DNA of 64,000 nt, from assembly GCA_963840645.1 (NCBI GenBank), contig CAWIZL010000004.1:203470-267469 (forward strand), read 5' to 3'. The notes below the pieces were generated by a model. The model did no database searches. It was given only the letters and a program-made list of their open reading frames with translations, and was not told the DNA's origin. The position numbers were made by a program, and so were the translations under genes. Shown here one piece after another: positions 18,127 to 33,559 of the stretch. Within the stretch, counting starts at the first letter, position 1. Each line of letters starts with the position of its first letter. This stretch comes from Candidatus Doudnabacteria bacterium. Lineage in GTDB: Bacteria; Patescibacteriota; Doudnabacteria; UBA920; VMFF01.

Positions 18127-18462
18127 GTGGAAATCGGAACTCTGGTTGCGGTATTCAACGAAGCAGAACTGGCTCCGAGTACATTTATCGGACTTGCCCG
18201 GTACGTCGGGGATGCTGTCATCTACTTCATCGTGACACCTGACAAGGAATACTTTGCCTGCCCAAACAGGGAAGCACGTCCGACTGAGGCGGTAGCTGAA
18301 CAGTTCCACGGCAAAATAGAAGTCTGGGAGAAACAGGCAAAGCTCTTTCTGCAAACTGGCGGCGTACGCTACGGCTGCGAAGTCTGCTACGTGGAGTACG
18401 CAGAAGTGAAACGGCTAGTTGACCCAGTCCTTCGGGCGCGAGAAAAGGTTCTGCATAACTAG
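18127..18462 (+). CDS. hypothetical protein
   Basis: GTG at 18127 follows GAGGAGG. 111 aa. A strong terminator follows. The long ORF 17965..18462 overlaps the M23 gene start and is probably over-extended. Confidence 0.5.
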   Translation: MEIGTLVAVFNEAELAPSTFIGLARYVGDAVIYFIVTPDKEYFACPNREARPTEAVAEQFHGKIEVWEKQAKLFLQTGGVRYGCEVCYVEYAEVKRLVDPVLRAREKVLHN

Positions 18463-18467
18463 AGCAA

Positions 18468-18500
18468 GTGGCCAGACGTACGTCTGGCCACTTTCATATT
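18468..18500 (+). terminator. rho-independent terminator
   Basis: Stem GTGGCCAGAC-GTAC-GTCTGGCCAC followed by TTTCATATT. Confidence 0.7.
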
Positions 18501-18513
18501 AAATAAATTTGGT

Positions 18514-18593
18514 TGGTAGCCGAACAGGATATTTATTTGAAAGACTTGGTACGGGAAATATACACTATACGGGAAAAGGTGGCAATTCTGTGA
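18514..18593 (+). repeat. att-like repeat copy 1 (core TGGTAGC + conserved arm encoding VAEQDIYLKDLVREIYTIREKVAIL*); distal island border
   Basis: Core at 18514..18520 is identical to 30073..30079. The arm is near-identical to copies at 21521, 23241 and 23897. Similarity starts exactly at the core. Confidence 0.85.
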
Positions 18594-18603
18594 CCTATGG
18601 ACA

Positions 18604-18642
18604 GAAAAAAATCAGGTAGACGCAGCAACGCTGGCTACCTGA
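18604..18642 (-). terminator. rho-independent terminator of the minus-strand module A operon
   Basis: Stem TCAGGTAG / CTACCTGA, followed on the minus strand by a T-run (A-run 18604..18611 on plus). Confidence 0.6.
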
Positions 18643-18671
18643 CTGACACGAAGTCAAAAAACATTGAGCGA

Positions 18672-19196
18672 TCATTTGCGTAAGTTTGGTCTCTGCTGTG
18701 GCTTAGGATTCAGTATTTCCCTCAGGTAGCCTTCCAGCTTTTTAAGCTCCTCGTCCTGGGAACCTTCCAGACCACGCGCGATGCTGAGCGTTAGCCTGAT
18801 CTGGGGAATAACCTGCTTCTTGGCGTACTCGTCACCCGTACCAGCCACGGCGGCCAGCACCTCGTAGGCGTAGCCAGAAACACCCTCATCTGGATCTTTG
18901 GTAAGCTTCACCAAAGAATCAACGATGACGGTAGTATCCTTGTACGGGGCTAGCTTTATTGCCCAGAAACCGATCAGCCCTGGCGAGTCAAACTTACGGC
19001 GATCTTGCAACGCTTCGGCTAAGATCGGGATAGCCTCCTGCCGATGTGATCGCACGAACTGAACCTCCTTATCCGTGACGCACAGACTGTCTATGCACAC
19101 AGCACTGATCAAACTCGAAACCTGATCCTTCTGATCAGCCTGCATGCAGGCCACAGAAAAAATCATGGACGCGAAAAACCTTCTCGACCGTTTCAT
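18672..19196 (-). CDS. lipoprotein with HEAT-like repeats
   Basis: The ATG at 19196 gives MKRSRRFFASMIFSVAC (lipobox FSVAC). AIPILAEALQD and VDSLVKLTKDPDEGVSGYAYEVLAAV resemble HEAT/PBS-lyase repeats. Confidence 0.6.
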   Translation of the reverse strand: MKRSRRFFASMIFSVACMQADQKDQVSSLISAVCIDSLCVTDKEVQFVRSHRQEAIPILAEALQDRRKFDSPGLIGFWAIKLAPYKDTTVIVDSLVKLTKDPDEGVSGYAYEVLAAVAGTGDEYAKKQVIPQIRLTLSIARGLEGSQDEELKKLEGYLREILNPKPQQRPNLRK

Positions 19197-19281
19197 ACAC
19201 AACCTCGATAACGGAAATATACACCGTTCGGTCAAAAGTGGCAACCTTGTTGGCGTAGGTTTCAGTCAAAACCAATGGGCA

Positions 19282-19584
19282 CTATTTCCACACGCTGCAA
19301 GCTATTCGTGCACACCGTCCGTAAGCCCCCCTCAAAGCAAAAAACAAGAATCCAATGAAGAGAGGGATTGACACCAATTTTTTAAAATCAGGGAACGTTA
19401 CCAAAAAACTAACTCCGATAGTTGAAAAGATGGTGGCAAAAATAACAGACACACTTGATTGCGATGTCCAATATTGCACTACGGGTGCTAAACTAGCACC
19501 AGGTGGTGCATCGTTTATGCCGTTCTCACCGACTATAAAAAGTGCAGCCTTGTCTAAACCCTTATACTTTTCTATCTGAGACAT
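19282..19584 (-). CDS. small two-TM membrane protein
   Basis: 100 aa with two hydrophobic helices. Its start overlaps the stop of the upstream HEPN-like gene by 23 nt. Confidence 0.5.
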   Translation of the reverse strand: MSQIEKYKGLDKAALFIVGENGINDAPPGASLAPVVQYWTSQSSVSVIFATIFSTIGVSFLVTFPDFKKLVSIPLFIGFLFFALRGAYGRCARIACSVWK

Positions 19585-19865
19585 TGGAGTGGTCTGGTTT
19601 ATTAACTGCTCTTAAGTAATCCATAAGTATTTTCTCTTTGGTAGCTCGGAGCAAAAGGTCTTTGCCTTCGTAAGCCAAAGCGTGAATCCTACCATGGCTA
19701 ATATCGTCTCTGATTTTCTTGAGCTTCCAAAGAATACCTGTCACATTGTTCTTTCCAGACATACCCTCGTATAGACGTATCTTATCGGTAAAGTATTCAA
19801 GATTATCAACTTGGCAGGTACCCATTTCTTCGGACGCCTTGTGCCTCTAGTGTAGCGTGTGTTGG

Positions 19866-20685
19866 TTAGTTTGTGAATACTGTTTGCCGCTGGGCGTAGA
19901 CGCTCGGCGGCATTTTCAGTGCGCTGTGGATGCGCTCGTTGTTGTAGTACAGGATCTGCAGGTGGAGGGCGACGGCCAGCTCGGCGAGGCTGCCAAACCG
20001 GTCTGGGTCGCCCAGGTCAACCTTGAACTGCGAGTAGAACGACTCCTGGTAGCCGTTCTCCCACGGGCTCGCCTTGCGGCTCATGGATACCTGGATGCCG
20101 CACTGCCCAGCAAACCTGGTGTAGGCCTTTGCCCGGTACTCGTTGCCCTGGTCTGAGTGGGTCAGTGCCGGTGCGTCGCGCTTGCCCAGGGCGTCGATGA
20201 GGGCCGTGACGGTCAGCTGCGCCGTGTGCGCGTTCAGCACGCTCCAGCCGACGACCTCGCGGCTCCACAGTGACCATGACGGTCGCCAGGTACACGAACC
20301 TGCCGTGGAACTTGAGGTACGTGAAGTCGGACACCCAGGCGATGCCGGCTCGTGCGGGGAACGGGATGGCGAGCAGCAGGTTCTGGTACGGCGCAGCGTC
20401 CCTGCCTGAATCACGAGCCTTTACCGGCCTCTTCGCCCTCCTGCGGAACGGCTTGATGCCGAAGAGCTTCATGACCCGCAGCGCGGACTTCCGGTTGACC
20501 CCCAGCTCCCGGGCGATCCGCTTGTGCCCGTAGCTCGGGTGGGCGTGGAGCACCCCCTCGATTCTGACCTTGAGCTGCCAGTCGCGCTCGGGCATCTTGG
20601 GGCGGTAGTACAGCATGGAGCGGGACAGCCCACCGCTCTCCGCGAGTGATTTCTTCGTCGGGTTGTGAAGGTGCACGGCGCTCAC
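19866..20685 (-). CDS. IS3 OrfB (DDE transposase), with an extra frameshift near 20280
   Basis: AWVSDFTYL (D), THSDQGNEY (D) and NERIHSAL (E region). Two overlapping ORFs, 20017..20685 and 19866..20414. Confidence 0.8.
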
Positions 20686-20689
20686 CAGC

Positions 20690-20959
20690 TCAGCGATCCA
20701 GCTCTTTTTTTTCCAGCTGCGACAGCCTGACCGTCAGCCTGCCGATGATCTCGTGGAGCGCCGAGTTCTCCCGCCTGAGCCTGGACAGCTCCAAGATCGA
20801 CGGCGGGGCGGTCACGTTCGAGGCGACCCACTTGTAGATCGTCTTCGGGCTGAGGCCGTACTGCTTCGCCAGGTCTGGCACGCTCTCGCCGCTCTCCTTC
20901 AGCTTACGCAGCACCTCAGACTTAATCTCTGGACTGGCGGCTGGTGTTCCCTTGGGCAT
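20690..20959 (-). CDS. IS3 OrfA (HTH transposase N-terminal protein)
   Basis: LAKQYGLSPKTIYKWV helix-turn-helix plus a leucine-zipper-like C-terminus. Ends at the A8 slippery run. Confidence 0.85.
   Translation of the reverse strand: MPKGTPAASPEIKSEVLRKLKESGESVPDLAKQYGLSPKTIYKWVASNVTAPPSILELSRLRRENSALHEIIGRLTVRLSQLEKKELDR
20704..20713 (-). promoter_or_regulatory. programmed -1 ribosomal frameshift site of IS3 (A-run)
   Basis: The minus strand reads CTGGAAAAAAAAGAG at the orfA end. The -1 frame continues KKSWIAELVSAVHLHNPTKK into OrfB. Confidence 0.6.
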
Positions 20960-21410
20960 ACGTTGGTTCTCCTTTCACCCAGTATACCGGAAGCGACAAG
21001 GTGTCTGATATTCGGGGTACCTGCCAACTCCCCGTTGCCTCTTTAGAAAATAATTCTTCTCTACAGCACTCCTTATTTCCACAGCGGTAGCTACAGGTAA
21101 GTCTTTCAGGATATCTTCGAGTGGCTTATTTGATTTTTTTCCACCGAATATAGATTCTTCCAATAATCTCTTTGCCTCGTCAATGGCTTCGTGCTCAGAC
21201 GTTTCGGTAGCTTTTTTCCAAGCAGCCTCCAACGAATCTCCCAGATCCTTCTCTGCCAGAAAACATAGCCAAAAAACAAAGGATAGCGTGTCGATCTGCT
21301 CATCAGTTAATTTCAAACTGCCCTTTGAAATCAGAGTAATTAATTTATCCTCAGAAATCTGGCTCATCCTTTCTTCAATGGCTTTTAAATTATACATGGT
21401 AAATAAACTA

Positions 21411-21520
21411 GATGAAATTATTTTTCAGCAAATCAGTAAGAACGGCCTGGACAACAGGCACGGCAACGGCATTGCCAAATTGCCGTACAGGGCTGTTGCC
21501 GAAAGACCTAGAAATGAAGT
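21411..21520 (-). pseudogene. 3' remnant of a C5 DNA cytosine methyltransferase (motif X only)
   Basis: The minus-strand frame reads NFISRSFGNSPVRQFGNAVAVPVVQAVLTDLLKNNFI*. QFGNAV.VP is C5-MTase motif X. Homology stops at the repeat core at 21521. Confidence 0.7.
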
Positions 21521-21606
21521 TGGTAGCCGAACAGGATATTTATTTGAAAGACTTGGTACGGGAAATATACAATATTAGGGCAAAGGTGGCAACTTTGGTC
21601 GTGTAA
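21521..21606 (+). repeat. att-like repeat copy 2 (core + arm encoding VAEQDIYLKDLVREIYNIRAKVATLVV*)
   Basis: Core TGGTAGC at 21521..21527. The arm aligns with copies 1, 3 and 4. The left flank is unrelated to the other copies. Confidence 0.85.
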
Positions 21607-21613
21607 ATTCTGG

Positions 21614-21654
21614 CATAAAAAAATAATAGGGTCGCCAGAATTAACTGACGACCC
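21614..21654 (-). terminator. rho-independent terminator of module B
   Basis: Stem GGGTCGCCAG / CTGACGACCC, then a T-run on the minus strand (ATAAAAAAATAATA on plus). Confidence 0.6.
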
Positions 21655-21746
21655 ATGAGAAACCACCGCCTACGGATGATCTATGGCATCGAGGCTTCGT
21701 AACATTTCCACGTCATTCTCGGCCTCAGCTTTTTTCCTGAGCTGCC

Positions 21747-21899
21747 TCAGAAAGTAAGCGATCCGTCGGAGCTGTAAGTGACTAAGGGCAAGCTGAGCCC
21801 CTCCACGCCACTGTTCGCCCTTGGCTCCAACAGCTGGTTGGCGAATCTGCCAAGAATCTCACCCAGAGATTCCAATAGTTCTGGTGCCTTTTTGAACAT
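21747..21899 (-). CDS. small hypothetical protein (50 aa; may extend to 21670 if frameshifted)
   Basis: ATG at 21899 is preceded by GAAGGAGGTGGGT. Not in the ORF track because it is under 60 aa. A second frame continues as RRIAYFLRQLRKKAEAENDVEMLRSLDAIDHP*. Confidence 0.45.
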   Translation of the reverse strand: MFKKAPELLESLGEILGRFANQLLEPRANSGVEGLSLPLVTYSSDGSLTF

Positions 21900-21916
21900 A
21901 CCCACCTCCTTCTATC

Positions 21917-22420
21917 TTACTTCGCGGTAACCCAAGGCTGGAGCAAAGTGCACTTGCCGATGGTGCTGTATAGCAGCTGGATTCCCGGCGTCCGCAGCTG
22001 CTCATCAACCTCATACTGTTTCCTTTCAGTAGAAGCTTTAGAACCGAGCTGCGTTTCGATCCACCGCTTCATCGCTGCGTCCAGGATCAGTGACGCCTTG
22101 CAAATTTCTGTGTTGCCAGCGTGCCCCCGCGCCACGGCGTTCGCGAAATTCTCGATGATGTCGAGCGACTGGTTACGGATGTTCGACTGGAGTGCCCGTT
22201 CGGCTTCGCCAGCGTCGGTAATGTAACGCTCTCGCCCATCCACTTCTCTTTTTTCAACAGTCCATCGGACGTTGATCAGCTCGACGATTTTCTTGTCGGC
22301 GAGCTGATCGTTGGCGAGCTTCGTTGCGGCTGCCAGACTGGCAGGCGTTGCGGTTTTCGTTTGCTGGGCGAACGACGTGCCCAGTACGAGCAAGGTAAAG
22401 GCGATGAGTTTCTGCGTCAT
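21917..22420 (-). CDS. secreted hypothetical protein
   Basis: MTQKLIAFTLLVLGTSFAQQ is signal-peptide-like. 167 aa. No recognised domain. Confidence 0.55.
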   Translation of the reverse strand: MTQKLIAFTLLVLGTSFAQQTKTATPASLAAATKLANDQLADKKIVELINVRWTVEKREVDGRERYITDAGEAERALQSNIRNQSLDIIENFANAVARGHAGNTEICKASLILDAAMKRWIETQLGSKASTERKQYEVDEQLRTPGIQLLYSTIGKCTLLQPWVTAK

Positions 22421-22539
22421 GGTCTTGCACACTCCACTTTCCCCTGGTTACTCCCAGAGAATCAAAGAGCCTACGGTGAAAGTAAGCACCTGGATACTCT
22501 GGAAGTAAACATATTTGAAAAATAAACCTCCTTTGTGCT

Positions 22540-22578
22540 CTCACCTCAACAAACCAGAGACTGGTTTATTGAGGTGAG
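22540..22578. terminator. long perfect hairpin, probable terminator after the 22674..23015 gene
   Basis: CTCACCTCAA-C-AAACCAG-AGA-CTGGTTT-A-TTGAGGTGAG. A T-rich tract follows on the minus strand. Confidence 0.55.
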
Positions 22579-22673
22579 TCCGCGACGTTGGTGCTGTCGC
22601 GGCAAGTGTGCGTGTACGCTATCGGCCGAAGGGGTCATCTGCGTAGAGTGCGAACGAGCGCAGGGTCTCCTGC

Positions 22674-23015
22674 TTAAACGCAATACTCGCAGGTGGACAG
22701 ACTGGCTGCATTCTCACATTGTCCGAAGAACCACGTGTGCGCCCCGCAGCGGCACGTGAGGCGGTACGCTGGTGTATTTGGAACTCCAGAGCGACTGAGC
22801 CCGCTCTGCAGCTCAACGCCACTTGCTGACCGGTAGCGGTCGAAGTACTCCAGTGAAGCATCGTGGCTGTGGTGCTCGGCGGCAAAGGCAGTGAAACCTT
22901 GAGCCTCACCAATTGATTCGAACTCGTGGTCTACGGAGATGCCTTTGTTCGGTTTGAACCGAACAGTCCATCCGATGAACGTGCCCGTGACAACCTGTTG
23001 CGTAGCGTTCGGCAT
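22674..23015 (-). CDS. hypothetical protein with C-terminal Cys-rich (zinc-ribbon-like) tail
   Basis: GAAGGAGAAAAGCAA precedes the ATG. The C-terminus reads CRCGAHTWFFGQCENAASLSTCEYC. An upstream TTGACA promoter carries the palindrome AGCAAATAGTTTGCT. Confidence 0.55.
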   Translation of the reverse strand: MPNATQQVVTGTFIGWTVRFKPNKGISVDHEFESIGEAQGFTAFAAEHHSHDASLEYFDRYRSASGVELQSGLSRSGVPNTPAYRLTCRCGAHTWFFGQCENAASLSTCEYCV

Positions 23016-23200
23016 TTGCTTTTCTCCTTCGGAATGTAGAAACCTCGCTATTGCTAGCTATCGAAAGAGTAGCAAACTATTTGCTTTTTGTCAACGGATA
23101 TTGCGCAATATAAATTCTGGTTTAGTACAAGATCCAACTTACGAGAACATTGCTTAAATAAAATTTCGAGCTGCTCCAGCTCACTCAATTCCCAAAACAA

Positions 23201-23326
23201 TACCAGACAGCTGATCCTCACTGCGTGAGGAACACCTGCCTGGTAGCCGAACAGGATCTTTATTTGAAAGACTTGGTACAGGAAATATACAATATTTGGG
23301 CTAATGTAGCAATCTTATCTGGGTAA
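23201..23326 (+). repeat. att-like repeat copy 3 (hairpin left arm + core + arm encoding VAEQDLYLKDLVQEIYNIWANVAILSG*)
   Basis: Core at 23241..23247. About 40 nt left of the core is shared only with copy 4 and contains nested inverted repeats (CCTCAC-TGC-GTGAGG). Confidence 0.85.
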
Positions 23327-23425
23327 AGAAAAGCTGCAGCTCCTGAGCAATAGAGCTTTTACTGCACCTGAGACAGTTGCCCGAAACTATCCTTTGTGAT
23401 AGTCTCCAGTTGAATTGGAGGATTA

Positions 23426-23765
23426 ATGCTTACACTTTCGCGAGTTCGTCGGGCGCTGCACCTTGAAGCATCGATACGAGATCCGCTGACAACAGCCTTG
23501 GGACTTATCCGAATGAGGGGGTTGGACTACATCGGTATCAATGTTCGCTCTTTGCCAACAGACAACAGGGTGGTCATCGCTCGCTACGCGACGGCTCTAC
23601 GCCAACGTTCCACTGGATCAGTTGCTCGCAGAGCCGATTCCAGACGACTTAATCGAACAGATCCGATCTTTGTTTCCAGAACGCGAATGCTGCGTAATCC
23701 CAATCGTAACAGCAGACGATTTGGAGAAAGAGAAACGCTGGTTCCAAAGCATGAACGCTGAATAG
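23426..23765 (+). CDS. hypothetical protein, probable frameshift near 23600
   Basis: GGAGGATTA precedes the ATG at 23426. The acidic C-terminal part (23541..23765, ...PLDQLLAEPIPDDLIEQIRSLF...) is in a second frame. A terminator follows. Confidence 0.4.
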
Positions 23766-23788
23766 CGAAAGTGAGCCGTAAAATATTA

Positions 23789-23827
23789 CCCCGCCTCTAT
23801 CCTTCAAGATTGGCGGGGTTCATTTTT
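23789..23827 (+). terminator. rho-independent terminator
   Basis: Stem CCCCGCC / GGCGGGG followed by TTCATTTTT. Confidence 0.6.
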
Positions 23828-23856
23828 AAAATTAGACAGCGAAGAAAAGATACCCG

Positions 23857-23976
23857 TACCAGGCAGCTGATCCTCACTGCGTGAGGAACACCTGCCTGGT
23901 AGCCGAACAGGATGTTTATTTGAAAGACTTGGTACGGGAAATATACAGTATTCGGGAAAAGGTGGCAACTTTTTGA
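23857..23976 (+). repeat. att-like repeat copy 4 (hairpin left arm + core + arm encoding VAEQDVYLKDLVREIYSIREKVATF*)
   Basis: Core at 23897..23903. The left arm is the same as in copy 3. Confidence 0.85.
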
Positions 23977-24058
23977 AGCTTAAATAGGGAATTCCGCCAG
24001 CTGTACAAAGCCATATTTTTATTCTATAATTTTTTATACAAATCCCACATCAAACACA

Positions 24059-25082
24059 ATGCCCAACCAACTACTGCTGAACAGAAACGAGGTCACGCAG
24101 GCCCTCTCCGCGGTGCTTGAAAATCCTGAAAAACTTTAAACCAAGCCACATCAATTTTTATTTTGATAGCTACTATGGCTCAGCTCTGCTGTCTAAGCTG
24201 TCGAACGTCTTTGCCTTACCGAATGAACAGGTAATAGTTGGCTACGGAATTGAGGATATACTGCGAACAATTTTTGATTCTCTGAGCAATGAAAGTGACA
24301 GCGTTCTAACCCACGAGCTGCACTACACCTACTACGACAAGTACCTGACTTTCAAGAAAATAAAAGTGGAGCTGTTCAAGTTGAGTGAGAGCACAACCTC
24401 TTTTGAGTTTGACATTGAAGACTGCCTCAACCAAATCAAGTTCGTGCATCCAAAAATTATTCTCGTTACATCTCCAAATAATCCAACAGGAAATTCGATC
24501 GCCGTCACTGACCTAAAAAAAATTTTGGCAGAGGCAGATAAGAGTAGCCTGGTCATTCTCGATGAAGCCTACTACGGTTTTGATTCAGTATACGACGAAA
24601 AGGGCATCCTATCTTTGCTCGGCGAGTACGATAACTTCGTTATCCTGAGAAGCTTCTCTAAGCTGTACGCGCTGGCTGGTATGAGGATAGGCTTCGCGCT
24701 CTGCGGCAAAAAGGTAAGGGAAATGATCGAGTACCAAGATCCGTATTTAGGCGGCAGCAGAATTTTGGAAGAGGTGGCAATCGCGGCACTCGAATCAAAG
24801 GAATACTACGCCAATCTTTCAAATGAAATCATCCAAGATAGAGAAAATTTTACAGCAGGGGTAAATAGCCTATCGCACTTCAAAGCCTACACCTCAAGAG
24901 CTAACTTTGTGCTGGTGAAAGTGTCCGACGAAGCCAAGCTGCTGATGGAAACAAAAATGGAGCAGCTAAATCCACTCATAGCAAAATTTGTCACAGGTAA
25001 CTACATGCGTCTGTCCATTGGAACAGAGCAGCACACTCAAAAATTTCTAGAAGTTCTGTCTGACGTAAACGGAGAGGTATGA
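24059..25082 (+). CDS. class I/II PLP-dependent aminotransferase (histidinol-phosphate aminotransferase-like), apparent frameshift near 24100
   Basis: SPNNPTG, DEAYYGF and RSFSKLYALAGMRIG (PLP lysine). The N-terminus MPNQLLLNRNEVTQ lies in another frame starting at 24059, downstream of TATAAT at 24024. Confidence 0.75.
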
Positions 25083-25713
25083 CAAAGGCAGTCTTGTTCG
25101 ACATGGATGGCCTCCTGGTGGACACAGAGAACGTAGATTTGAGTGTTGCGGTAAAAATCTGCCACGAGATGGGAATAGACCTGACTGACGAGGAGAAGGA
25201 GAGCCGCGTCGGCGTGGCTAGCAGAAAATTTTACAGCGGCTCTTTGAGAAGAGACGAGTTCATTTTGATCTAGAAGAAGTTTTGAGCAAGCACTTCAAGA
25301 TTTATGATGAGCTGCTAGAGGTTGGCCTGTGTCACTTTCCAGGAGCGAAATCTTTGCCAGCACTGTTAAAGTCACGAGGCTATAAATTAGGATTGGTATC
25401 AGGTAGTACCAGGAAGCAAGTTGAAACAATTCTATCACAGTTGGGTATAAAAAACTTCTTTGGTGTCATTATTGCAATAGAAGATGTTGCTCACGGAAAA
25501 CCTGATCCAGCTGCATACCTACTCGCTGCACAAAAATTGCAGGTCACCCCAGAAGAGTGTGTCGTTTTAGAAGATGCTCTCCCTGGCATCACAGCGGGCA
25601 AGAGAGCGGGTATGAAAGTAATTGGCGTTACCAATAATGGCGGCCAAGACCTATCACTAGCTGACTTGGTTGTTAACGGTTTGGACGAAGTTGAGATTGG
25701 AATGCTAACATAA
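25079..25713 (+). CDS. HAD-superfamily hydrolase (beta-phosphoglucomutase/phosphatase-like), apparent frameshift near 25245
   Basis: LFDMDGLLVDTE (motif I), SGSTRK, GKPDP and LEDALPGITAGKRAGM (motif IV). ORFs 25079..25273 + 25282..25713. Confidence 0.75.
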
Positions 25714-25717
25714 CTTT

Positions 25718-26476
25718 ATGAAAACGAAGATTTACGAAAGCTTGGCAAACCTATTTCCCCTGTGGAGAGAAACAATCCTCGGCAAGCAAGGGCACGAGAA
25801 GACAGAGGTAGATTTTGTCACCAGTGTATTGAACAAGTACCCATCTGAAATCAAGAGCGTGATTGACCTCGGCGGTGGGGTTGGACTGCACTCGCACCTG
25901 CTCAAAGAATCTGGCTACGATGTGACCTTGTTTGATAGGTCTGAAAAGGCACTGCAAATCGCAAAGGAAAATGATCCATCGCTCAAGGTGGTTCAAGGAA
26001 GCTTTGAGGACATAGGCGTTGCGGGTTCATTCGATGCGTCAATCTGCCTGTGGTCTACCCTGTCTTACGTCTACTCGGAAGACGGCAGGAAAAAATTCTA
26101 CGATTGGCAGAAAAATCATACGGGCAAGGTCATCATCCTAGACGAGGCAAACTTCTACCGATACTCTGAAAATTTCCACAAAGTTTATTTTGGCGAGGAC
26201 AGCAACCACATAATGAAAGTGGTTCGCGATTGGACGTTAACGAAAGATAACTTAAAAGAAACCAAGTTCACTTACGAAATCACCGATAAAAATACTGGCA
26301 GGACAGAGACTATCGAGGACGCAGAGAGCGAGCAATACGTGCCAGTGGAAAAGCTGGAAGAATACCTTGGGGCAGAATGGAAGCTACAGTACCTATGCGG
26401 AGATTACAATTTAAATTCTGCATTTGATAAGACAAACTCATCCAGAATTATCGCCGTATTCTTTAAGTACAGATAG
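25718..26476 (+). CDS. class I SAM-dependent methyltransferase
   Basis: Motif I VIDLGGGVGLHS followed by an acidic residue (LFDRS). Confidence 0.7.
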   Translation: MKTKIYESLANLFPLWRETILGKQGHEKTEVDFVTSVLNKYPSEIKSVIDLGGGVGLHSHLLKESGYDVTLFDRSEKALQIAKENDPSLKVVQGSFEDIGVAGSFDASICLWSTLSYVYSEDGRKKFYDWQKNHTGKVIILDEANFYRYSENFHKVYFGEDSNHIMKVVRDWTLTKDNLKETKFTYEITDKNTGRTETIEDAESEQYVPVEKLEEYLGAEWKLQYLCGDYNLNSAFDKTNSSRIIAVFFKYR

Positions 26477-26495
26477 TGCACCGCGCACACAGCCG

Positions 26496-26566
26496 TTGAC
26501 AAACTCACCCGCTGCGGCTTTTCATTAATGACCGCTTTTGACAAAACCACCCGCTGCGCGTATACT
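26496..26566 (+). promoter_or_regulatory. two 21-nt direct repeats (iteron/operator-like); the second forms a consensus promoter TTGACA-17-TATACT
   Basis: TTGACAAACTCACCCGCTGCG at 26496 and TTGACAAAACCACCCGCTGCG at 26538. TATACT at 26561..26566. Confidence 0.6.
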
Positions 26567-26573
26567 TCCATCA

Positions 26574-26856
26574 CAACTTAATAACTCAGCAAGAATCATC
26601 ACACGAGGGTAGGTGGTTTCCAGTCGCCACGGATGGGCGGCCTACCGATAACACATAAAGGAAACCTTCGCAGCCATTGCCAGGCTGCGCGATGTACGAA
26701 TGGGTGGGCGCCCAGTTATAAATAAGTCCCTTGCAGGCAAACCAAAACGAAAGGTTTTGAAATGCCTGCATTCAGCGTGCTGGTCTGTACCCAATACAGC
26801 CAGCTGACAAAGAAATACAGCCACGACACAACCCCAGTACCGCCTGGGGCTTTTTT
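26574..26856 (+). ncRNA. candidate structured non-coding RNA or single-strand origin (sso) of the adjacent RCR replicon
   Basis: No convincing ORF, but many complementary segments: GGTAGG/CCTACC, CGCC/GGCG, AAACCTTCG/CGAAAGGTTT, GCAGCC/GGCTGC, TGCAGGCA/TGCCTGCA and CTGG-CTGTA/TACAG-CCAG. Ends with CCCCAG-TACCGC-CTGGGG + T6. Confidence 0.4.
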
Positions 26857-27027
26857 ATCGCACCCTCACACTACTGGCTGCCCCCACGCCGATGGCTCGG
26901 CGAGAGGTGCGCCAGCACCGGGGGTGTCGCGGCGGGGATGGCGGCACGCCGCCAACCCGCCTGTGTTCTGCTCCCCGTTCCCGTCCCCTGTATCACTAGA
27001 TACTAGGTACACGTTAGGCGGAAACGT

Positions 27028-27897
27028 ATGAAGCTGACGAGCGTCAAAACCATCATCCTTGGCTCCAAGGTCAAGTTCCTGTACTTCGACACGCCCATCA
27101 GCTACGACTTCGAGAACATCGCGGCGCAGCAGAGAAAAAGCGGGAAAGAAATAATTACGATTGGAGACGACAGGGGCGACAGCATGGAGCTGTCTGCGCT
27201 CAAGGCCAGGTCACGGCTGAGGAACTTAGTCTGGTGCAACGCGTGGCAGTACAAGAAAGCAAACGGCAGCCTGTTTGTCCCTCAGTTCTCGACGTTCACC
27301 TTTGACCGCGACGTAGTGGACTTCGCCACGGGACACCCGCTGTACAACAACTTCATCAAGCGGCTCAACTATCAGTTCGATGAGAAGGTGCTCTGCATCA
27401 CGGTTCCTGAATTTCAGAAAGACACGGACTACCACGGCAAGGTCAAGGAGCTGGGCGGCAGGGTGCACTACCACGCCGTGTTCTTCAACCTGCCGTACCT
27501 GAAAAACCCTCATGCGTTTTTGAGCGACACGTGGGGCAACGGGTACGTGTTCAGTAAGTCAATCAACTCCGTGCAGCACCTCTCGCGCTACGTTACCAAG
27601 TACGTCCAGAAAGACCTAGAAAACAAGCACATCAAGTTCAAGAAGCGGTACTTAGTCTCGCGCGGCATCAAGCGGCCTGTCGAGATCTACGACCAGCAGT
27701 TCGCCGTTGACTTCGAGCGGTACATCTCCGCGCCAGGTATCCACACGACCAGAGAAAATGACTACGATTCCACTGACGGCAGGAAGATCCACGAGCTGGA
27801 GCTGACGTTCCCCGACGGATTCGATTTGTCGAGCCTCGTTGGTGAGACACCACAGGACACGCTGAGGCTCGCCCAGCAGATGGGAATCACCCCATGA
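27028..27897 (+). CDS. rolling-circle replication initiator (HUH endonuclease, phiX174 gpA / microvirus VP4-like)
   Basis: Motif 1 FSTFTF, HUH motif VHYHAVFF, and two-tyrosine motif YVTKYVQK. Confidence 0.8.
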   Translation: MKLTSVKTIILGSKVKFLYFDTPISYDFENIAAQQRKSGKEIITIGDDRGDSMELSALKARSRLRNLVWCNAWQYKKANGSLFVPQFSTFTFDRDVVDFATGHPLYNNFIKRLNYQFDEKVLCITVPEFQKDTDYHGKVKELGGRVHYHAVFFNLPYLKNPHAFLSDTWGNGYVFSKSINSVQHLSRYVTKYVQKDLENKHIKFKKRYLVSRGIKRPVEIYDQQFAVDFERYISAPGIHTTRENDYDSTDGRKIHELELTFPDGFDLSSLVGETPQDTLRLAQQMGITP

Positions 27898-28013
27898 CGG
27901 ACGAGGAGACACAAAACTTCCGCGACCTTCAGCAGGCTCTCGTCGAGCTCGCCTTTGCGTTTTGGCGCGAGGAAAAATTACAGCAGATGACGGAAAACAA
28001 AAAGGATGTATAA
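27894..28013 (+). CDS. small helical protein (39 aa) translationally coupled to rep
   Basis: ATGA overlap with the rep stop. Sequence MTDEETQNFRDLQQALVELAFAFWREEKLQQMTENKKDV. Below the ORF-track length cut-off. Confidence 0.4.
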   Translation: MTDEETQNFRDLQQALVELAFAFWREEKLQQMTENKKDV

Positions 28014-28038
28014 TACAACCATTCATTAAATATCTACC

Positions 28039-28584
28039 ATGTCCACCTTTACCATTCCATTTCCAGAGTACGACATCGCCAACATCCTCCAGAAAGAATT
28101 TGCCAAGAAGGATAGCTTTTCAGTTGCTATACCACTGAGCCGCCAGCAGAAATTCTACGACCTGCTTCTGGTGAATGGGCAGACCAAAAAATCTGTGACT
28201 ATCCAAGTAAAAAGTTCGAGGACATGGTTGGGATTAGGTAAACAAGAATACCAGCATTACTCTTGGCTCAACCACTTTGACATCAAGGACAACTACAGCG
28301 ATTTTTATTTCGTCTACATGACATATCCGTTGCTAGATAAAAATTTCCACCCTGGAGCAAAGTGGGACAGAAAAATACTCGTCTTCAATCAAAAGGAGAT
28401 GCTGGAACTTCTCGGTAACGTAAAAACAAAAGCAGGTAAACAGGGACGCTTCTTCGGCTTCGGATTCAACAATAGAGACAACGAGATATACAGCACCCTC
28501 GGCTTTTCGCATCTAGGTTTACAAAATTTTTCAAAAAATCTCCTCAAGAACAAGCTCGCCGAGATAAAAAAGAAGCTGGTTTAA
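28039..28584 (+). CDS. PD-(D/E)xK-like nuclease-fold protein (tentative)
   Basis: YDLLLV ... VTIQVKSS resembles a D...(E/Q)xK restriction-endonuclease-like core. AT-richer than the flanks. TGTATAAT promoter at 28006..28013. Confidence 0.4.
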   Translation: MSTFTIPFPEYDIANILQKEFAKKDSFSVAIPLSRQQKFYDLLLVNGQTKKSVTIQVKSSRTWLGLGKQEYQHYSWLNHFDIKDNYSDFYFVYMTYPLLDKNFHPGAKWDRKILVFNQKEMLELLGNVKTKAGKQGRFFGFGFNNRDNEIYSTLGFSHLGLQNFSKNLLKNKLAEIKKKLV

Positions 28585-28592
28585 AAACTGCT

Positions 28593-30113
28593 ATGGAACA
28601 ACCACACGGCGTCATCTACTATCGCGTCTCGACCACAGAGCAGGCGGAGCACGGCTTCAGCCTGGAGAACCAGCGGGAGACGTGCCTGCGGTACGCCGAG
28701 CACCACGGCATCAAAATCGTCAAGCTGTTCTCCGACGACGGCGTGTCGGCCAAGACCGCCGACAGGGACGGGCTGCAGGCCATGCTGTCGTTCTGTGGCG
28801 ACAGGTCAAATAGCGTCAGCGTCGCCATCATCTACAAGGTGGACAGGCTGTCGCGCAACGTGCACGACTACGGAGGCATCGTCATGCTGCTCAGGAAGCA
28901 CGGCGTGCGGCTCGTCTCGGCCACGGAAGCCATTGATGAGACCCCGTTCGGCGTGGCCGTGGGCAACATCATGATAACGTTCTCCGAGTTTGACAACGCC
29001 GTGCGCAAGGAGCGCACCAAGGCGGGCATGGTGCAGTGCCTCAACTCTGGCAGGTTTCCGCACAGGGTAAAGATTGGCTACCTGAACGTGGTTGACCCGC
29101 ATGGAAACAAAAAAATAATTCTTGACCCAGAGCGTGCAGCTACGATTAAAAATATTCTCCAAGAGTTCTCGAAGGGCATCTACTTCCAAGAGGAGCTGCG
29201 GCAAAGGTTCAATGCCCAAGGCTTTCTCACGCGCGAGGGAAATCCCCTGTCCTTCCAGATGATGAACAAGATTCTGACGAGCAAGTTCTACTGCGGCACA
29301 ATGACCGTGAGTGGCATTGAGTACCAGGGCAGCCACGAGCCGCTGATTTCTGAAACAATCTTTCACAAGAACCAACAGCTACTGAGAAAGAAATCTACTG
29401 CGCCATCGCTGAGCACCACGTCTGAGTTTGCGCTCAGGAACTACGTCATCTGCGGCGACTGCTCGCGGCCGCTGACGGCTGGATTTTCAATTGGGCAGAA
29501 CGGCGGCAGGTATCCGTACTACCGCTGCTACAACCCAAAGTGCCCGTCACGAAAATCATACGCAAAGGGAAAGCTGGAGGCAGCATTCATAAAGCTGCTC
29601 CGAAGCGTTACCCCGACAGAGGAAAACATTGCCTCACTCAAAGAGGTCATCGTGAACCACTGGAACAAGCAGTACAAGAACCTGAACAAGAAAAATGAAC
29701 GGTTAGAGAAGCAGCTCGTTGAGCTTCAAGCTGAAAAGGCTCAGATCTTCAACATGGGCAAGAAGCAGCTCATCTCTGATGAAGACTTCAAGGAAGCGTT
29801 CGATACCGTAAAACAAAAAATAGCCGATTGCCAGCTTGCTCTCGCAGGAACGACGATTGAAGACTTTAACGTGAACGAGGCAGTAGACTTCGTGTTCGCC
29901 TTCGTGCGGCGCATTCCAGAGTACTGGGAGAAAGCTGACTACGCCAAGCGTGTAAAATTGCAGGGTTTGATTTTCGCCAAAAATCCCATCTTCCAAAAAA
30001 CAGAGTTTGCAACCCCAGTTCTGACCAATGTTTTCAAGGCAAAAGAGTTCATTTGCAATCAAAATTCAACGATGGTAGCGCTACGGGGAATCGAACCCCG
30101 ATTTAGTGGATGA
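28593..30113 (+). CDS. large serine recombinase (integrase); 3' end runs into the complement of tRNA-Glu
   Basis: Resolvase catalytic domain YYRVSTTEQ ... DRLSRN, a recombinase domain, zinc ribbon CGDC...C..PKC, and a coiled-coil region. The final residues VALRGIEPRFSG are encoded by tRNA antisense sequence. Confidence 0.9.
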   Translation: MEQPHGVIYYRVSTTEQAEHGFSLENQRETCLRYAEHHGIKIVKLFSDDGVSAKTADRDGLQAMLSFCGDRSNSVSVAIIYKVDRLSRNVHDYGGIVMLLRKHGVRLVSATEAIDETPFGVAVGNIMITFSEFDNAVRKERTKAGMVQCLNSGRFPHRVKIGYLNVVDPHGNKKIILDPERAATIKNILQEFSKGIYFQEELRQRFNAQGFLTREGNPLSFQMMNKILTSKFYCGTMTVSGIEYQGSHEPLISETIFHKNQQLLRKKSTAPSLSTTSEFALRNYVICGDCSRPLTAGFSIGQNGGRYPYYRCYNPKCPSRKSYAKGKLEAAFIKLLRSVTPTEENIASLKEVIVNHWNKQYKNLNKKNERLEKQLVELQAEKAQIFNMGKKQLISDEDFKEAFDTVKQKIADCQLALAGTTIEDFNVNEAVDFVFAFVRRIPEYWEKADYAKRVKLQGLIFAKNPIFQKTEFATPVLTNVFKAKEFICNQNSTMVALRGIEPRFSG

Positions 30114-30147
30114 GAACCACTTGTCCTAACCGTTAGACGATAGCGCC
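30073..30147 (-). tRNA. tRNA-Glu (anticodon CUC)
   Basis: Manual cloverleaf: acceptor GGCGCTA/TAGCGCT (G1-U72), D stem GTCT/GGAC, anticodon stem AGTGG/CCACT with loop TTCTCAT, T arm CGGGG-TTCGATT-CCCCG, encoded ACCA. Confidence 0.85.
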
Positions 30148-30213
30148 ATGATGGGTTCAGGGAGCATTGTAACAGAAATAGCTGCTGTAGACAAGCGAAC
30201 GGAGAACAAAAAA

Positions 30214-31491
30214 CTAGCTCTTCAGCCACTTGCCATACTGCCTGCACACCAACCACGCAGCCTGATCCGGATGCTGCATCACGGCAACAACAATCTTCTC
30301 CATGCGCGTACCTTGCGAACCTTTCACCAAAATCACGGTGCCAGGTTTGGCAAGCTCCCTGACCTTTTCAATTGCACCAGACGACTTTGCAAAGTGGAGA
30401 ATTCTGCCAGCTGGAAAACCGCCGCGCACAGCCGCATCAACAGCAATCCGCATGCGCTCCCCAACAGCCACAAAGTAGCCATCTTTCAAGTGCTCTACAA
30501 TGTACTCGCCCACTTCTGCGTGTGCAGCATCAGACAGTGGCCCAAGCTCGAGCATGTCACCGAGCACCGCAACCTTTTGCCCAAGAGGAAACTCTGCGAG
30601 CTCTTCAAGTGCTGCACGTGTAGATAGCGGCGCAGCGTTGTACGTGTCGTCTAAAACAATAGATCCGCGCACGCCGCCAAGCACGGTCAGCCTGCCCGGC
30701 TGCGCATGGTAAGACTGGACAGATTGAGCAGCACCGTCAAATGCAATTCCAGCTGCAATTCCAGCTGCAACACCTGCTGCGCACGCGTACACGTGTGGGG
30801 TACCAACAACGTTTGGCAGGCAAACCTCGCGCACAGCACCCGCGTGCTCTAACTGAAAAATGGTGCCGTAAACTTTTTTCTCTTCTAGGTAGGCTGTCCT
30901 TGGGTGTGCAATTCGCACGTCAGAACCAGCAGCTGTTCCGTACGTCACGCACCTGCCATGGAAATTTGGCACCAGGCTCGCCACGTTTGCATCATCTAAA
31001 TTTAGAACCGCAACGTTCCGCTCCCCAAAGTGTTTAAAAATTTTCGCCTTTTCTTTTAAAATCTGCTGCTCATCTTTGAAGTACTCTAGGTGCGACACGC
31101 CAACAGTCGTGAGCACGGCAACATCCGGGCTCACAATTTCCATGAGCCTATCCATGTCTCCAGGCCTATCAATGCCGAGCTCGAGCACGAGAGCCTCTGG
31201 GTAATCGCGCTGCGCACTCTGCGCCAAAAACCCTTTCCAAAAAACACCCAGCCACTTAAAAATATTTCTGCCTGGAGCCTCAACGCCAATGACCGTGAAT
31301 GGCAAGCCAAACTCATTGTTGTAGTTGCGAACGTTCGTGCGCGTGGCGTACCTTCCAGATAGCACCGCAAAAATAGCTTCCTTTGCGGAGCTCTTGCCAA
31401 TGCTGCCTGTCACGGCAACCACCATTGGCCTGTGCTGCTCTAAAATTTTCTTCGACGTAGCTGCGAGCCTGCTCTGTATGGTTTCCTTCAT
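30214..31491 (-). CDS. murF: UDP-N-acetylmuramoyl-tripeptide--D-alanyl-D-alanine ligase
   Basis: Mur ligase P-loop AVTGSIGKSSAKE, NNEFGLP and DDTYNA. Located at the end of the dcw block. Confidence 0.85.
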   Translation of the reverse strand: MKETIQSRLAATSKKILEQHRPMVVAVTGSIGKSSAKEAIFAVLSGRYATRTNVRNYNNEFGLPFTVIGVEAPGRNIFKWLGVFWKGFLAQSAQRDYPEALVLELGIDRPGDMDRLMEIVSPDVAVLTTVGVSHLEYFKDEQQILKEKAKIFKHFGERNVAVLNLDDANVASLVPNFHGRCVTYGTAAGSDVRIAHPRTAYLEEKKVYGTIFQLEHAGAVREVCLPNVVGTPHVYACAAGVAAGIAAGIAFDGAAQSVQSYHAQPGRLTVLGGVRGSIVLDDTYNAAPLSTRAALEELAEFPLGQKVAVLGDMLELGPLSDAAHAEVGEYIVEHLKDGYFVAVGERMRIAVDAAVRGGFPAGRILHFAKSSGAIEKVRELAKPGTVILVKGSQGTRMEKIVVAVMQHPDQAAWLVCRQYGKWLKS

Positions 31492-31496
31492 TCTTT

Positions 31497-33197
31497 CTAC
31501 CTAGTTGTCGGCACCTGGTAGTAGTTTAGAATGAACTTGGCTATTTGGCCAAATGCGGGTGCAGCTGTTGTTTCAGCAAACGCCACGTCGCGTGGGTTGT
31601 TGATGTTCACGATCATCACAAACTGCGGGTCATTCACAGGTCCGTAGCCAACGAACGACCCAATGTTGTCGTTTGCAATGTAACCCTTGCTGGTGGCAAC
31701 CTGGGCAGTGCCTGTCTTGCCGGCAATGTAGTAGCCCTTCACGCCAGCCTGTGCACCGTACCCGTGCTCAACGTCATCGACGAGCATGGAGGTCATGAGC
31801 TGCGAAGCGCTCGCAGAAATAATTTGACCGTCGCTCACGGGCTTTGCTGTGGTTCGCGCGCCGTCTGGCGCAATGGTGCTGTCTACGATGTACGGCTGCA
31901 TCATCACGCCGCCGTTCGCAATGGCCTGGTACGCCTGCAGCATCTGAATTGGCGTCACGGTAATGCCCTGGCCAAAAGAAGCTGTATCGTAGTTAATCTG
32001 CGCGGCGTTTGGCGTGAGGTTAGACAGGTCGCCAACTTCTTCTGGCAGCTCAATGTTCGTTGCCTGCCCAAAGCGGAACTTGTTCAGGTACGTAAGGAAC
32101 TGCGCGTTGCCGAGCAAGCCCTCGACGTACGCAGCGCCGGTATTCAAAGAGTGGTCAATGACCGCTGTCATGGTTGTGGTTGGCCCGAGGTCTGTCATTT
32201 CTGAGTTGTGAATTGTGTAGCCGCTCACCTTGAGCGACCCTGTGTTGTCGTACGTTGACTGCGGCGTAATTAAATTCTGGTCGAGTGCCGATGAGAGCGT
32301 GACAGCCTTCATGGTTGACCCTGGCTCGTACTCTTCGGTTGTTGCCTCGTTCTGGAACACTGACAAATCTGTAACCTGGTTGTACTGGTTTGGGTTGAAG
32401 CTCGGGTACGTTGCCATGGCAAGGATTGCACCTGTCTTGGGGTTAGCCACAATCACGTTGCCAGAGTCTGCGCCGTGCTGCTGCACAACCTGGCTCAAGA
32501 CTGTCTCAACCTCGTGCTGGATAGACCTGTCAACGGTGAGCAGGAGGCTGCTACCATCTACCACGCTCTGCGCGCTGTTGCCAGTGCCAGCCAACACAGG
32601 CTGCTCGTAGCGCTCGAGTCCATACAGCCCAACCTTTGTGGTGCCAGTAGCTGGGTACCCAACAAAGCCGAGAACCTGGCTCATGAAGTTGCCCTCTGGG
32701 TAGTAGCGCACCTCTTCTGGCTCCAAGAAGACGCCAGCAAGCTTTGCAGCTGTAACCGCGTTTGAGTCGGCAGTGCTCAGGTCACTGGCAATTGGCACGT
32801 ACGCGCGCTGCGGCGCTGTGAGCTTCTGTAAAATTGTGGGCTGGCTCAAGCCTGTGCCAGCTCCCAAAATTCCCACGAGCTGGGTGGCCTCTGTGTTTGG
32901 GTCAGTGACCTCTGTTGGCACAGCGTACACGGTGTCCTCAACCGTGTTCGTCGCAACTGGGTACGGCGTCGTGGAGTACTTGTCTGTAATGAAAATTTCT
33001 CCTCGCTGTGGCTGCACAACTGGAACGTACGACTGCTGGCTCTGGGCTTCAGCCAGGTAGTACGCGTGCTGCCCAATGGCGATCGAAAAAAGTTTGGCGA
33101 GCACGAGCACCGCAAAAATACAGACAGCTGATCCGTAGACCAGCAGCCTGAGGCCAAAGGCTCTCTCCTTGGAAGGTTTTCTGCTAGCGGATTGCAA
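31497..33197 (-). CDS. ftsI: penicillin-binding protein, transpeptidase (FtsI/PBP3-like)
   Basis: GSTMK (SxxK), HSLN (SxN) and KTGTAQ. N-terminal TM. Probable TTG start at 33197 after AGGAG; the long ORF to 33335 overlaps ftsL. Confidence 0.8.
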   Translation of the reverse strand: MQSASRKPSKERAFGLRLLVYGSAVCIFAVLVLAKLFSIAIGQHAYYLAEAQSQQSYVPVVQPQRGEIFITDKYSTTPYPVATNTVEDTVYAVPTEVTDPNTEATQLVGILGAGTGLSQPTILQKLTAPQRAYVPIASDLSTADSNAVTAAKLAGVFLEPEEVRYYPEGNFMSQVLGFVGYPATGTTKVGLYGLERYEQPVLAGTGNSAQSVVDGSSLLLTVDRSIQHEVETVLSQVVQQHGADSGNVIVANPKTGAILAMATYPSFNPNQYNQVTDLSVFQNEATTEEYEPGSTMKAVTLSSALDQNLITPQSTYDNTGSLKVSGYTIHNSEMTDLGPTTTMTAVIDHSLNTGAAYVEGLLGNAQFLTYLNKFRFGQATNIELPEEVGDLSNLTPNAAQINYDTASFGQGITVTPIQMLQAYQAIANGGVMMQPYIVDSTIAPDGARTTAKPVSDGQIISASASQLMTSMLVDDVEHGYGAQAGVKGYYIAGKTGTAQVATSKGYIANDNIGSFVGYGPVNDPQFVMIVNINNPRDVAFAETTAAPAFGQIAKFILNYYQVPTTR

Positions 33198-33558
33198 CTG
33201 CTCCTGTCTGAATGTACGTGATGGTATCAACTGGAACCATGGTCGCAACAGCTGGGTCTGACTCTGTGCGCTGGAGTGACTCGAGCTGCGCTGCCTGCAC
33301 CTCGAGCGACTGGTACTGGTTCTGCGCGCTGGCAATCTGCTGCTGCACGCTGCTGCTCACAAACCCAGACGTTGACGAGGTGTTAGCCTGGTAAACGTAC
33401 GAACAGATCGCGCCAACAATGCCGAGCGCAATGAGCGGGCCAGCAATGGCTGCAAGGTTGTAGCGTGCCTTGGTATCGTTTACCATTTTTTGCTTTGTCC
33501 TCTGCACGTGTGCCGAGTACTGTGGCACGAGCCGTGCTAGCGTAAAATTCTTTCCCAT
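33184..33558 (-). CDS. FtsL-like cell division protein (TM + coiled coil)
   Basis: Positioned between rsmH and ftsI. Single TM (LAAIAGPLIALGIVGAI) followed by a Q-rich coiled coil. Confidence 0.55.
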   Translation of the reverse strand: MGKNFTLARLVPQYSAHVQRTKQKMVNDTKARYNLAAIAGPLIALGIVGAICSYVYQANTSSTSGFVSSSVQQQIASAQNQYQSLEVQAAQLESLQRTESDPAVATMVPVDTITYIQTGAVAIR

Positions 33559-33559
33559 T

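Follow-up and report, generated by a model that had tools for sequence, protein, structure and literature searches.

A core-and-tail repeat beside tRNA-Glu

The window, the whole 64-kb stretch of Patescibacteria DNA analysed here, carries an 11.6-kb array of gene modules (18514-30072) that abuts an intact tRNA-Glu(CTC) gene, scoring 62 bits, and whose last module encodes a large serine recombinase (LSR). The modules are separated by copies of a repeat that opens with the core TGGTAGC, found on the plus strand at 18514, 21521, 23241 and 23897 and followed each time by an arm, or tail, of ~75 nucleotides (nt). The core is the reverse complement of GCTACCA, the 3'-terminal heptamer of the tRNA gene at 30073-30147. 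With a fifth, degraded remnant there are five core-plus-tail copies, all in a single orientation and with the tRNA at one end. All statements on mechanism, beyond this anatomy of the sequence, are inference.

18513..18593, plus strand: copy 1, the attL site of the whole array; core 18514-18520 and tail T1, which in the recombinase frame reads LVAEQDIYLKDLVREIYTIREKVAIL and a stop; match to the tail hidden Markov model (HMM) at E 3.6e-14
~19204..19260, plus strand: fifth, degraded tail remnant inside module A, ending ..SITEIYTVRSKVATLLA and a stop; core-proximal half gone
21520..21606, plus strand: copy 2; core 21521-21527 and tail T2, LVAEQDIYLKDLVREIYNIRAKVATLVV and a stop
23240..23326, plus strand: copy 3; core 23241-23247 and tail T3, LVAEQDLYLKDLVQEIYNIWANVAILSG and a stop; the most divergent of the four full tails
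23896..23976, plus strand: copy 4, the attL site of the intact element D; core 23897-23903 and tail T4, LVAEQDVYLKDLVREIYSIREKVATF and a stop
28593..30113, plus strand: LSR gene with Resolvase, Recombinase and Zn_ribbon_recom domains; from 30072 its open reading frame (ORF) crosses the core into antisense tRNA, ending ..MVALRGIEPRFSG and a stop
30073..30147, minus strand: tRNA-Glu(CTC), into which the elements integrate; the core corresponds to its 3' end, GCTACCA

The four repeats lie where a first-pass annotation of this DNA had placed them, and an arm is common to them all. A 26-nt pattern derived from the arm, with up to three mismatches allowed, matches exactly these four sites in 64 kb, whereas shuffled sequences give an expectation of 0.00; a generic dispersed repeat, which the annotation had raised as an outcome that would undo its proposal, is thereby ruled out. 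An Rfam scan returned the tRNA as its sole match. To the left, the similarity of copies 1 and 2 and the tRNA junction starts precisely at TGGTAGC, and the tRNA junction has nothing beyond these seven letters in common with any attL-type copy. Copies 3 and 4 have an additional left arm in common (23201-23245 and 23857-23901) that holds nested inverted repeats, as annotated, and extends for 45 nt rather than ~40. The breakpoints therefore do fall at a short crossover core within the 3' end of tRNA-Glu, and TGGTAGC contains the crossover point.

Pairwise identity among the four tails is 82-92%, reaching at least 95% over the first 45 nt and falling to 66-86% over the last 35 nt. By hand count, an exact match of 52 nt starts at the core in copies 1 and 2, and one of 50 nt runs across hairpin and core in copies 3 and 4. 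In the fifth remnant, EIYTVRSKVATL could be matched with EIYNIRAKVATL by eye. This divergence rules out recent duplication of a single repeat. Since the tails differ by 8-18%, they derive from different, related donor elements and not from the copying of one repeat; their origins are independent.

The repeats are displaced 3' ends of a recombinase gene

The three Pfam domains of the LSR all score past their curated cut-offs (PF00239, E 1e-32; PF07508, 3e-13; PF13408, 2.5e-8), and its YYRVSTTEQ motif holds the context of the catalytic serine. All four arms are open in the frame of this gene and reach a stop after 26-28 codons, encoding LVAEQD[I/L/V]YLKDLV[R/Q]EIY.. The recombinase reconstructed in this way has 519 amino acids (aa), compared with 528-530 aa in P0015 and P0044, homologues in the free form. 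Of the 120 best homologues, which belong to Patescibacteria wherever the host is named, 98 end in the tRNA-derived antisense peptide ..LVAPRGIEPLLPG. In the few that lack it the tail aligns with the window arm (at L7, L10, V11 and I14), as in P0015 (..IVDYCIENLHPLVLDIKKW..). The P0015 gene, full-length and with its native tail, lies on a 10.8-kb contig (L083) that has a 30-nt terminal overlap and no tRNA. This contig is taken to be a free circular form with an uninterrupted attP, of a family member and not of the window's own element. Being homologous to the C-termini of such free forms, the repeats are displaced recombinase 3' ends, as the first-pass annotation had proposed. Since the arms are C-terminal tails of the recombinase, its gene spans attP, and integration would strand the last ~26 codons at the far end. 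For mapping the crossover dinucleotide, the dyad symmetry about the core TA is weak, at 12/24 positions in the window attP and 10/24 in that of L083.

Integrated relatives occupy tRNA-Glu, with anticodon TTC or CTC, at all nine loci scanned for tRNAs, and in two further cases (L098 and L099) the junction shows matching tRNA sequence. A homologous tail stands at the far (attL) end in four loci (L081, L084, L085 and L087); L081 is the simple case, a single 4.5-kb element with a rolling-circle replication protein (Rep), the recombinase and one tail. Identity to any phage or plasmid recombinase searched is at most ~29%, in partial alignments, and reaches 26% with the closest of the staphylococcal phage recombinases listed. 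A profile-based search for further loci in species-representative genomes was flooded by generic serine-recombinase motifs and yielded only L001 and L002 as true relatives. When the tail was sought by exact pattern in collections of viruses, metagenomes and genomes, nothing matched, a result that carries no weight because the scan also missed a JGI contig (L097) that contains the second pattern exactly.

Because the gene crosses attP, its free and integrated forms code for different C-termini, a difference that could serve as a built-in switch of direction or activity. Between the rep and recombinase genes, a short plus-strand ORF (window ~27890-27980) has 50-63% aa identity to L081 5548-5637 and L084 9730-9813. 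A family search with this ORF returned no match; it is a candidate excision or directionality factor.

Content of the modules

The DNA between the repeats, together with the left arms that abut the cores, comprises the following features.

18468..18512, plus strand: B arm, the chromosomal left half of the original attachment site; consists of the hairpin and T-run that terminate ORF 18127..18462 and of an A/T-rich spacer
18594..19203, minus strand: module A1; one ORF (18672..19169) with an ATG start and no family match
19261..21399, minus strand: module A2; minus-strand genes, with a 230-aa ORF interrupted by an IS3-like element
~19848-20990: IS3-like element with inverted repeats at 19811-19842 and 20996-21027; 64% GC against ~47% around it; frameshifted transposase
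21400..21519, minus strand: what remains of a C5 DNA methylase C-terminus, with the motif ..RQFGNAVAVPVV..; it breaks off right at the copy 2 core
21607..23200, minus strand: module B; ORFs 21747..21905, 21917..22432 and 22674..23015, no family matches
23201..23245: hairpin arm H of copy 3, TACCAGACAG..CTGCCTGGTA; overlaps the first 5 nt of the core, and on the tRNA strand is followed by UAUUGUUUUGGG
23327..23856, plus strand: module C; one ORF (23426..23761, 111 aa) and its own hairpin and T-run at 23791-23818 (read by eye)
23857..23901: hairpin arm H of copy 4; differs from that of copy 3 at 1/45 nt
23977..30072, plus strand: module D, the sole complete element; cargo, a conserved non-coding stretch (26535-26860), rolling-circle Rep (27028..27897), ORF 28039..28584 and the LSR

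The copies delimit modules of separate origin, as expected from the first reading of the sequence: they differ in their tails, by the 8-18% given above, and have unrelated cargo. The minus strand encodes modules A and B, the plus strand C and D. The left flank of copy 1 was correctly identified as the terminator of 18127..18462, and that of copy 2 as a truncated C5-methyltransferase, of which ~40 residues are left; the match covers the last ~28 positions of PF00145 (296-323 of 324) at E 0.005, below the curated cut-off. The IS3-like element consists of an HTH_Tnp_1 ORF and an adjoining broken transposase-like ORF, and its removal in silico restores the 230-aa minus-strand ORF from 20975..21397 and 19562..19825. 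Module D was described as holding the only recombinase gene. It does hold the sole LSR of the array; with the IS3-like insertion in module A, this is not the sole mobility gene. The older modules have decayed, as seen in the insertion sequence, the truncated methylase and the half-lost fifth tail.

The cargo of module D comprises an aminotransferase, a split HAD hydrolase and a methyltransferase. Its Rep belongs to PF23343, and the Rep-recombinase core of the module is similar to that of L081. Within this otherwise intact module, the HAD-family hydrolase gene (25079-25713, plus strand) is present as two ORFs of 64 aa and 143 aa and is probably a pseudogene. A homologue search with the module C protein was empty, the module proteins had no matches in PHROGs or PADLOC, and the cargo had no counterpart among 19 related loci. 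No tyrosine recombinase was detected among the ORFs in 14.6-33.3 kb that were compared with Pfam.

A hairpin arm next to the core

The palindromes of arm H are nested, with a folding energy of -21 to -24 kcal/mol. The frame is open through the arm, and 12 nt separate the inner hairpin from the core, as compared with ~7-13 nt for the hairpins in the last codons of other family members. In the recombinase genes of 7 of 11 members, the last ~42 nt on the tRNA strand rank 0-5 among ~200 windows per gene for folding stability and are followed by a U run. A strong hairpin and U run are found at this position in L085, L086, L087, L092, L098, L099 and L001, and are missing from the window (30030-30072), L081 and L084. 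The hairpin and U run in the last recombinase codons look like an intrinsic terminator that lies 7-12 nt past the 3' end of tRNA-Glu and is encoded antisense within the coding sequence. Terminator hairpins also occur in chromosomal left arms, and arm H has the same position relative to the core as the family terminators. Because the DNA abutting tRNA-Glu in this recombinase family usually encodes a terminator, arm H is itself most likely an intrinsic terminator that served tRNA-Glu while adjoining it.

Arm H could originate from the remnant of another recombinase subfamily, from a captured chromosomal arm or from a dedicated cassette arm. An HMM built from the last 35 or 18 residues of 98 members found nothing significant at the internal junctions of the island or in L084, L096 and L097, and we lean against arm H being the 3' end of another recombinase on this basis. 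A B-type motif common to the left arms was also sought; they had nothing in common beyond A/T richness and hairpins.

The locus in related genomes

The host MurF gene beside the tRNA was used to reach two related contigs, L096 and L097. In L096 (MurF 78% identical) an orthologue of 18127..18462 with its terminator is followed by TGGTAG, an unrelated 0.83-kb insert without a recombinase, TGGTAGC and the tRNA. Window 18223-18519 matches L096 5938-5641 at 74%, up to and including the core, and copy 1 therefore marks the chromosomal boundary. Whether the L096 insert begins with a degenerate tail was considered and rejected, as the alignment has no convincing similarity past TGGTAG. In L097 (MurF 71% identical) a tail 86-93% identical to those of the window is found 2.4 kb from the tRNA. 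The 2.4-kb island that it bounds has two cargo genes, no Rep or recombinase, and a hairpin and T-run abutting the core. Module-level variation in related genomes, which the first-pass annotation had set as a test, is thus found, with L096 and L097 carrying other content at the locus. At the level of sequence comparison, the locus varies by whole modules among relatives and the repeat is tied to tRNA-Glu.

A stretch of 247 nt in the L097 island matches window 26535-26780, in module D, at 91% identity. The region concerned (window 26535-26860, plus strand; L097 5729-6047, minus strand) consists of a promoter-like TTGACA-17-TATACT, ~260 nt without a convincing ORF and a terminator, and in module D it lies just upstream of rep. 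It has no Rfam match and a fold z-score of -3.0, and is a candidate for an element-borne non-coding RNA or an origin region.

A further locus, L084 3950-5400, opens with a terminator-like hairpin, TTTTGTAATTTTT and GGTAGAC at 3986, with no recognisable tail, and continues into a 1.4-kb module with a CopG-like antitoxin pair. At 5375 a similar hairpin and spacer are followed by GGTAGCC and a true tail, ahead of the recombinase-bearing element. This is possibly a two-step array in another genome.

Probable serial integration and loss of the recombinase

Taken together, these data make it probable that 18514-30072 is a tandem array of rolling-circle-plasmid-like integrative elements of one family, serially integrated at tRNA-Glu, the older of which are without Rep and recombinase. 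This corresponds to the first of two alternatives offered by the first-pass annotation, serial integration with later loss of the recombinases, and it is the best-supported reading. All of the elements would have been inserted by the LSR at one crossover in the last 7 nt of tRNA-Glu(CTC). Integration would cut the recombinase gene ~26 codons before its stop, leave the tail at the attL end and let the remainder of the ORF run into antisense tRNA, so that each dispersed copy would be the P' arm, and at the same time the recombinase tail, of one integration event. At least five such events, from related but different donors, would be recorded, with elements presumably arriving in succession at the restored tRNA end. 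The remains of earlier arrivals would be modules A1, A2, B and C, and the tRNA-proximal module D alone would have kept Rep and recombinase.

The loss of Rep and recombinase was itself probably site-specific, since no recombinase 3' sequence survives at the internal junctions, and was probably catalysed by the recombinase at the core. Two routes can be envisaged. The Rep-recombinase part may have been excised via a secondary attL-like site with the cargo staying behind, or an attP-like internal junction may have recombined with a pseudo-site. The use of pseudo-sites by LSRs is documented (PMC5937489). Either route would re-create an acceptor site beside an intact tRNA for the next arrival, and selection for an intact, terminated tRNA would favour the products seen. 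Were attR to pair with any of the core-tail sites upstream, the resident recombinase could also excise either module D by itself or a composite, and modules without a recombinase could be moved in cis in this way.

Several observations do not sit easily with serial integration and loss. In the site logic of LSRs such as those of Bxb1, phiC31 and A118, attP recombines with attB only. A P arm joined to a tRNA half is an attR, and would therefore be closed to a second arrival, so the model needs an extra step. No Rep or recombinase sequence was seen in modules A-C, only D encoding them, so that their former presence in A-C is presumed. Decay is out of step with position, the fifth remnant and T3 being the most degraded tails. 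Arm H differs between modules at 1/45 nt and the tails joined to it at 13/80, a pattern not expected from independent deletions; the histories of arms and tails are therefore separate and join at the core, where some exchange is called for. Finally, the window's lineage has no close relative in the collections, where the best matches are 67% (recombinase) and 78% (MurF) identical.

The absence of P arms from the internal junctions fits a closed attR and points to a prior loss, in each resident, of the Rep-recombinase part as far as the crossover. A programmed second recombination, in which the Rep-recombinase vehicle is released and cargo plus terminator hairpin are left at the core, would give the tRNA back its terminator and re-open the site. 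We regard such a programme as speculative and rather doubtful. If it exists, the deposit of cargo would make this a cassette-accretion platform in Patescibacteria driven by a serine recombinase, and modules could leave again as composites with the resident.

Alternative explanations

In the second alternative of the first-pass annotation, cassettes without a recombinase, each with a site of hairpin, core and tail, are mobilised in trans and accrete as in an integron. Modules B, C and perhaps A would then be non-autonomous units, inserted and excised by a helper recombinase. Arm H is indeed a discrete 45-nt unit, near-identical in two modules despite the difference between their tails, which implies exchange at the core, and module C is a single gene between two hairpin-core-tail sites. 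Core-bounded inserts without a recombinase recur in L096, L097 and possibly L084, and, because of the 50-nt exact repeat of copies 3 and 4, an assembly graph would not distinguish an integrated module C from an empty site plus a C circle. However, two of the four junctions lack the hairpin, arm H resembles the P half-site of the resident recombinase at just 8/22 nt (hand count), and the left arms of junctions without a recombinase (methylase fragment, H, L096 and L097) have no motif in common. Two hairpin-core-tail sites would recombine as attL with attL, a reaction that LSRs are not known to perform. The orientation of the modules is mixed as well, and promoter-like sites are found both in the tails and at other places within the modules; the module C protein is without a homologue and no module recurs among the 19 related loci. 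Arm H is better explained as a tRNA terminator. Cassettes mobilised in trans are thus unsupported, and we consider them unlikely.

Serial integration was also weighed against two further explanations. The window evidently comes from a metagenome-derived genome, and its exact repeats of 52 nt (copies 1 and 2) and 50 nt (copies 3 and 4) could not be ordered across by assemblers using a short k, so that the chain of modules might be a walk through alternative alleles or excised circles joined at these repeats. We hold this to be improbable: each junction has a unique left arm on core plus tail, whereas alternative alleles would end in core plus tRNA, the largest k of assemblers in common use exceeds the repeat length, and L097 and L084 independently have DNA without a recombinase between tail and tRNA-Glu. 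The repeat might instead be a regulatory unit (an outward promoter, a small antisense RNA, a terminator) spread by homologous recombination or gene conversion. A minus-strand TTGCCA-17-TATATT is among the best promoter-like matches in 6.3 kb and occurs in all five copies (18557-18585, 19216-19244, 21564-21592, 23284-23312 and 23940-23968; TTGCTA in copy 3), pointing out of the element, with the minus-strand ORF that starts at 19169 just downstream of it in the fifth copy. It is overlapped in the four full tails by a plus-strand TTGAAA-18-TACAAT, and the hairpin with its U-rich stretch could end a ~90-nt transcript. Yet the unit begins exactly at the core of the tRNA 3' end, in frame with the recombinase, and is homologous to the C-termini of free-form recombinases. 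The promoter hexamers fall on conserved codons (EIY, VA), so their conservation needs no other cause; the L081 tail (read by eye) does not keep the promoter, and the copies are too divergent for recent copying. A regulatory origin is very improbable.

Comparison with known systems

The array is real. Growth of an island by tandem integration is known in kind, and elements are well known to form tandem arrays at tRNA genes (PMC7192596); the recombinase system is unusual. Composite islands of the staphylococcal cassette chromosome (SCC) are the closest working analogy, although the array is not an SCC member. These islands combine serine recombinases, the 3' end of a conserved gene, short direct repeats between modules and pseudo-elements without a recombinase (10.1101/336396, PMC3900703). 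The likeness thus extends to LSRs, integration at, and restoration of, a conserved gene 3' end, and tandem modules between direct repeats, some of them recombinase-less. The target here is tRNA-Glu rather than rlmH, and the host is one of the Patescibacteria. There is a single recombinase, set apart by its target and by its identity to phage and plasmid recombinases and not by comparison with Ccr; the repeat, at ~80 nt, is the recombinase's own displaced coding tail; and the elements carry a rolling-circle Rep.

In arrays at tRNA genes the core is restored at both ends on integration, further elements insert and diverse neighbours accrue (PMC7192596). The arrays of Islander and TIGER are overwhelmingly those of tyrosine integrases, and by definition each unit has its own integrase. 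Here the recombinase is kept in one of at least five units, with no integrase remnant at the internal junctions, which places the array outside that definition. In integrases of the SSV1 (fusellovirus) type attP lies inside int, integration breaks the ORF, and the free and integrated forms encode different proteins. Here, too, attP lies within the recombinase gene. SSV1-type enzymes, however, are tyrosine recombinases of archaeal viruses whose gene is split into two large parts, whereas the serine recombinase here loses just its last ~26 codons and gains 13 tRNA-antisense codons. The phiRSM group of phages replicates by rolling circle and inserts at a tRNA 3' end. Its enzyme is of a different kind, a small resolvase-like protein (S-Core) without the Recombinase and Zn-ribbon domains. 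In these filamentous phages of Ralstonia a serine recombinase serves as the integrase (PMC7192596). Integrons resemble the array in their serial gene modules at one site and in a structured repeat, here found at some of the boundaries. They differ in that the array has no IntI tyrosine recombinase, attI or Pc, and no attC at every boundary, the hairpin being restricted to two of four junctions; moreover, its modules lie in both orientations with promoter-like sites in tails and elsewhere, and its repeats are coding remnants.

What we describe is a sizeable family of serine recombinases dedicated to tRNA-Glu. In 2020 LSRs were reported as not known to target tRNA genes (PMC7192596). The same survey stated the use of tRNA genes by S-Int to be previously unreported, and itself found 14/297 (PMC7192596). 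In open-access full-text papers, searched to a limited extent, we found no account of this tRNA-Glu family, and no earlier description of a recombinase gene that crosses attP or of last codons that double, in antisense, as a replacement terminator for the tRNA. The precise junctions without recombinase remnants raise a testable question, namely the use of secondary sites by LSRs. Genomes of Patescibacteria are small, and few mobile elements have been described in them. A hot spot beside an essential tRNA that stacks restriction-modification remnants, metabolic genes and orphan genes offers a handle on how they acquire genes.

Gene neighbourhood of the integration site

The order tRNA-Glu, MurF, penicillin-binding protein, small ORF and RsmH is common to the window (30073-35000) and L096; in L092 (L092/L093 11469-16700) MraZ also follows RsmH. 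From this gene order, the tRNA-Glu site is an integration hot spot at the edge of a cell-division and cell-wall cluster in the window's lineage. At the same site L092 carries a different, larger element with a tubulin-like protein, an AAA_25 helicase and a recombinase of the same family.

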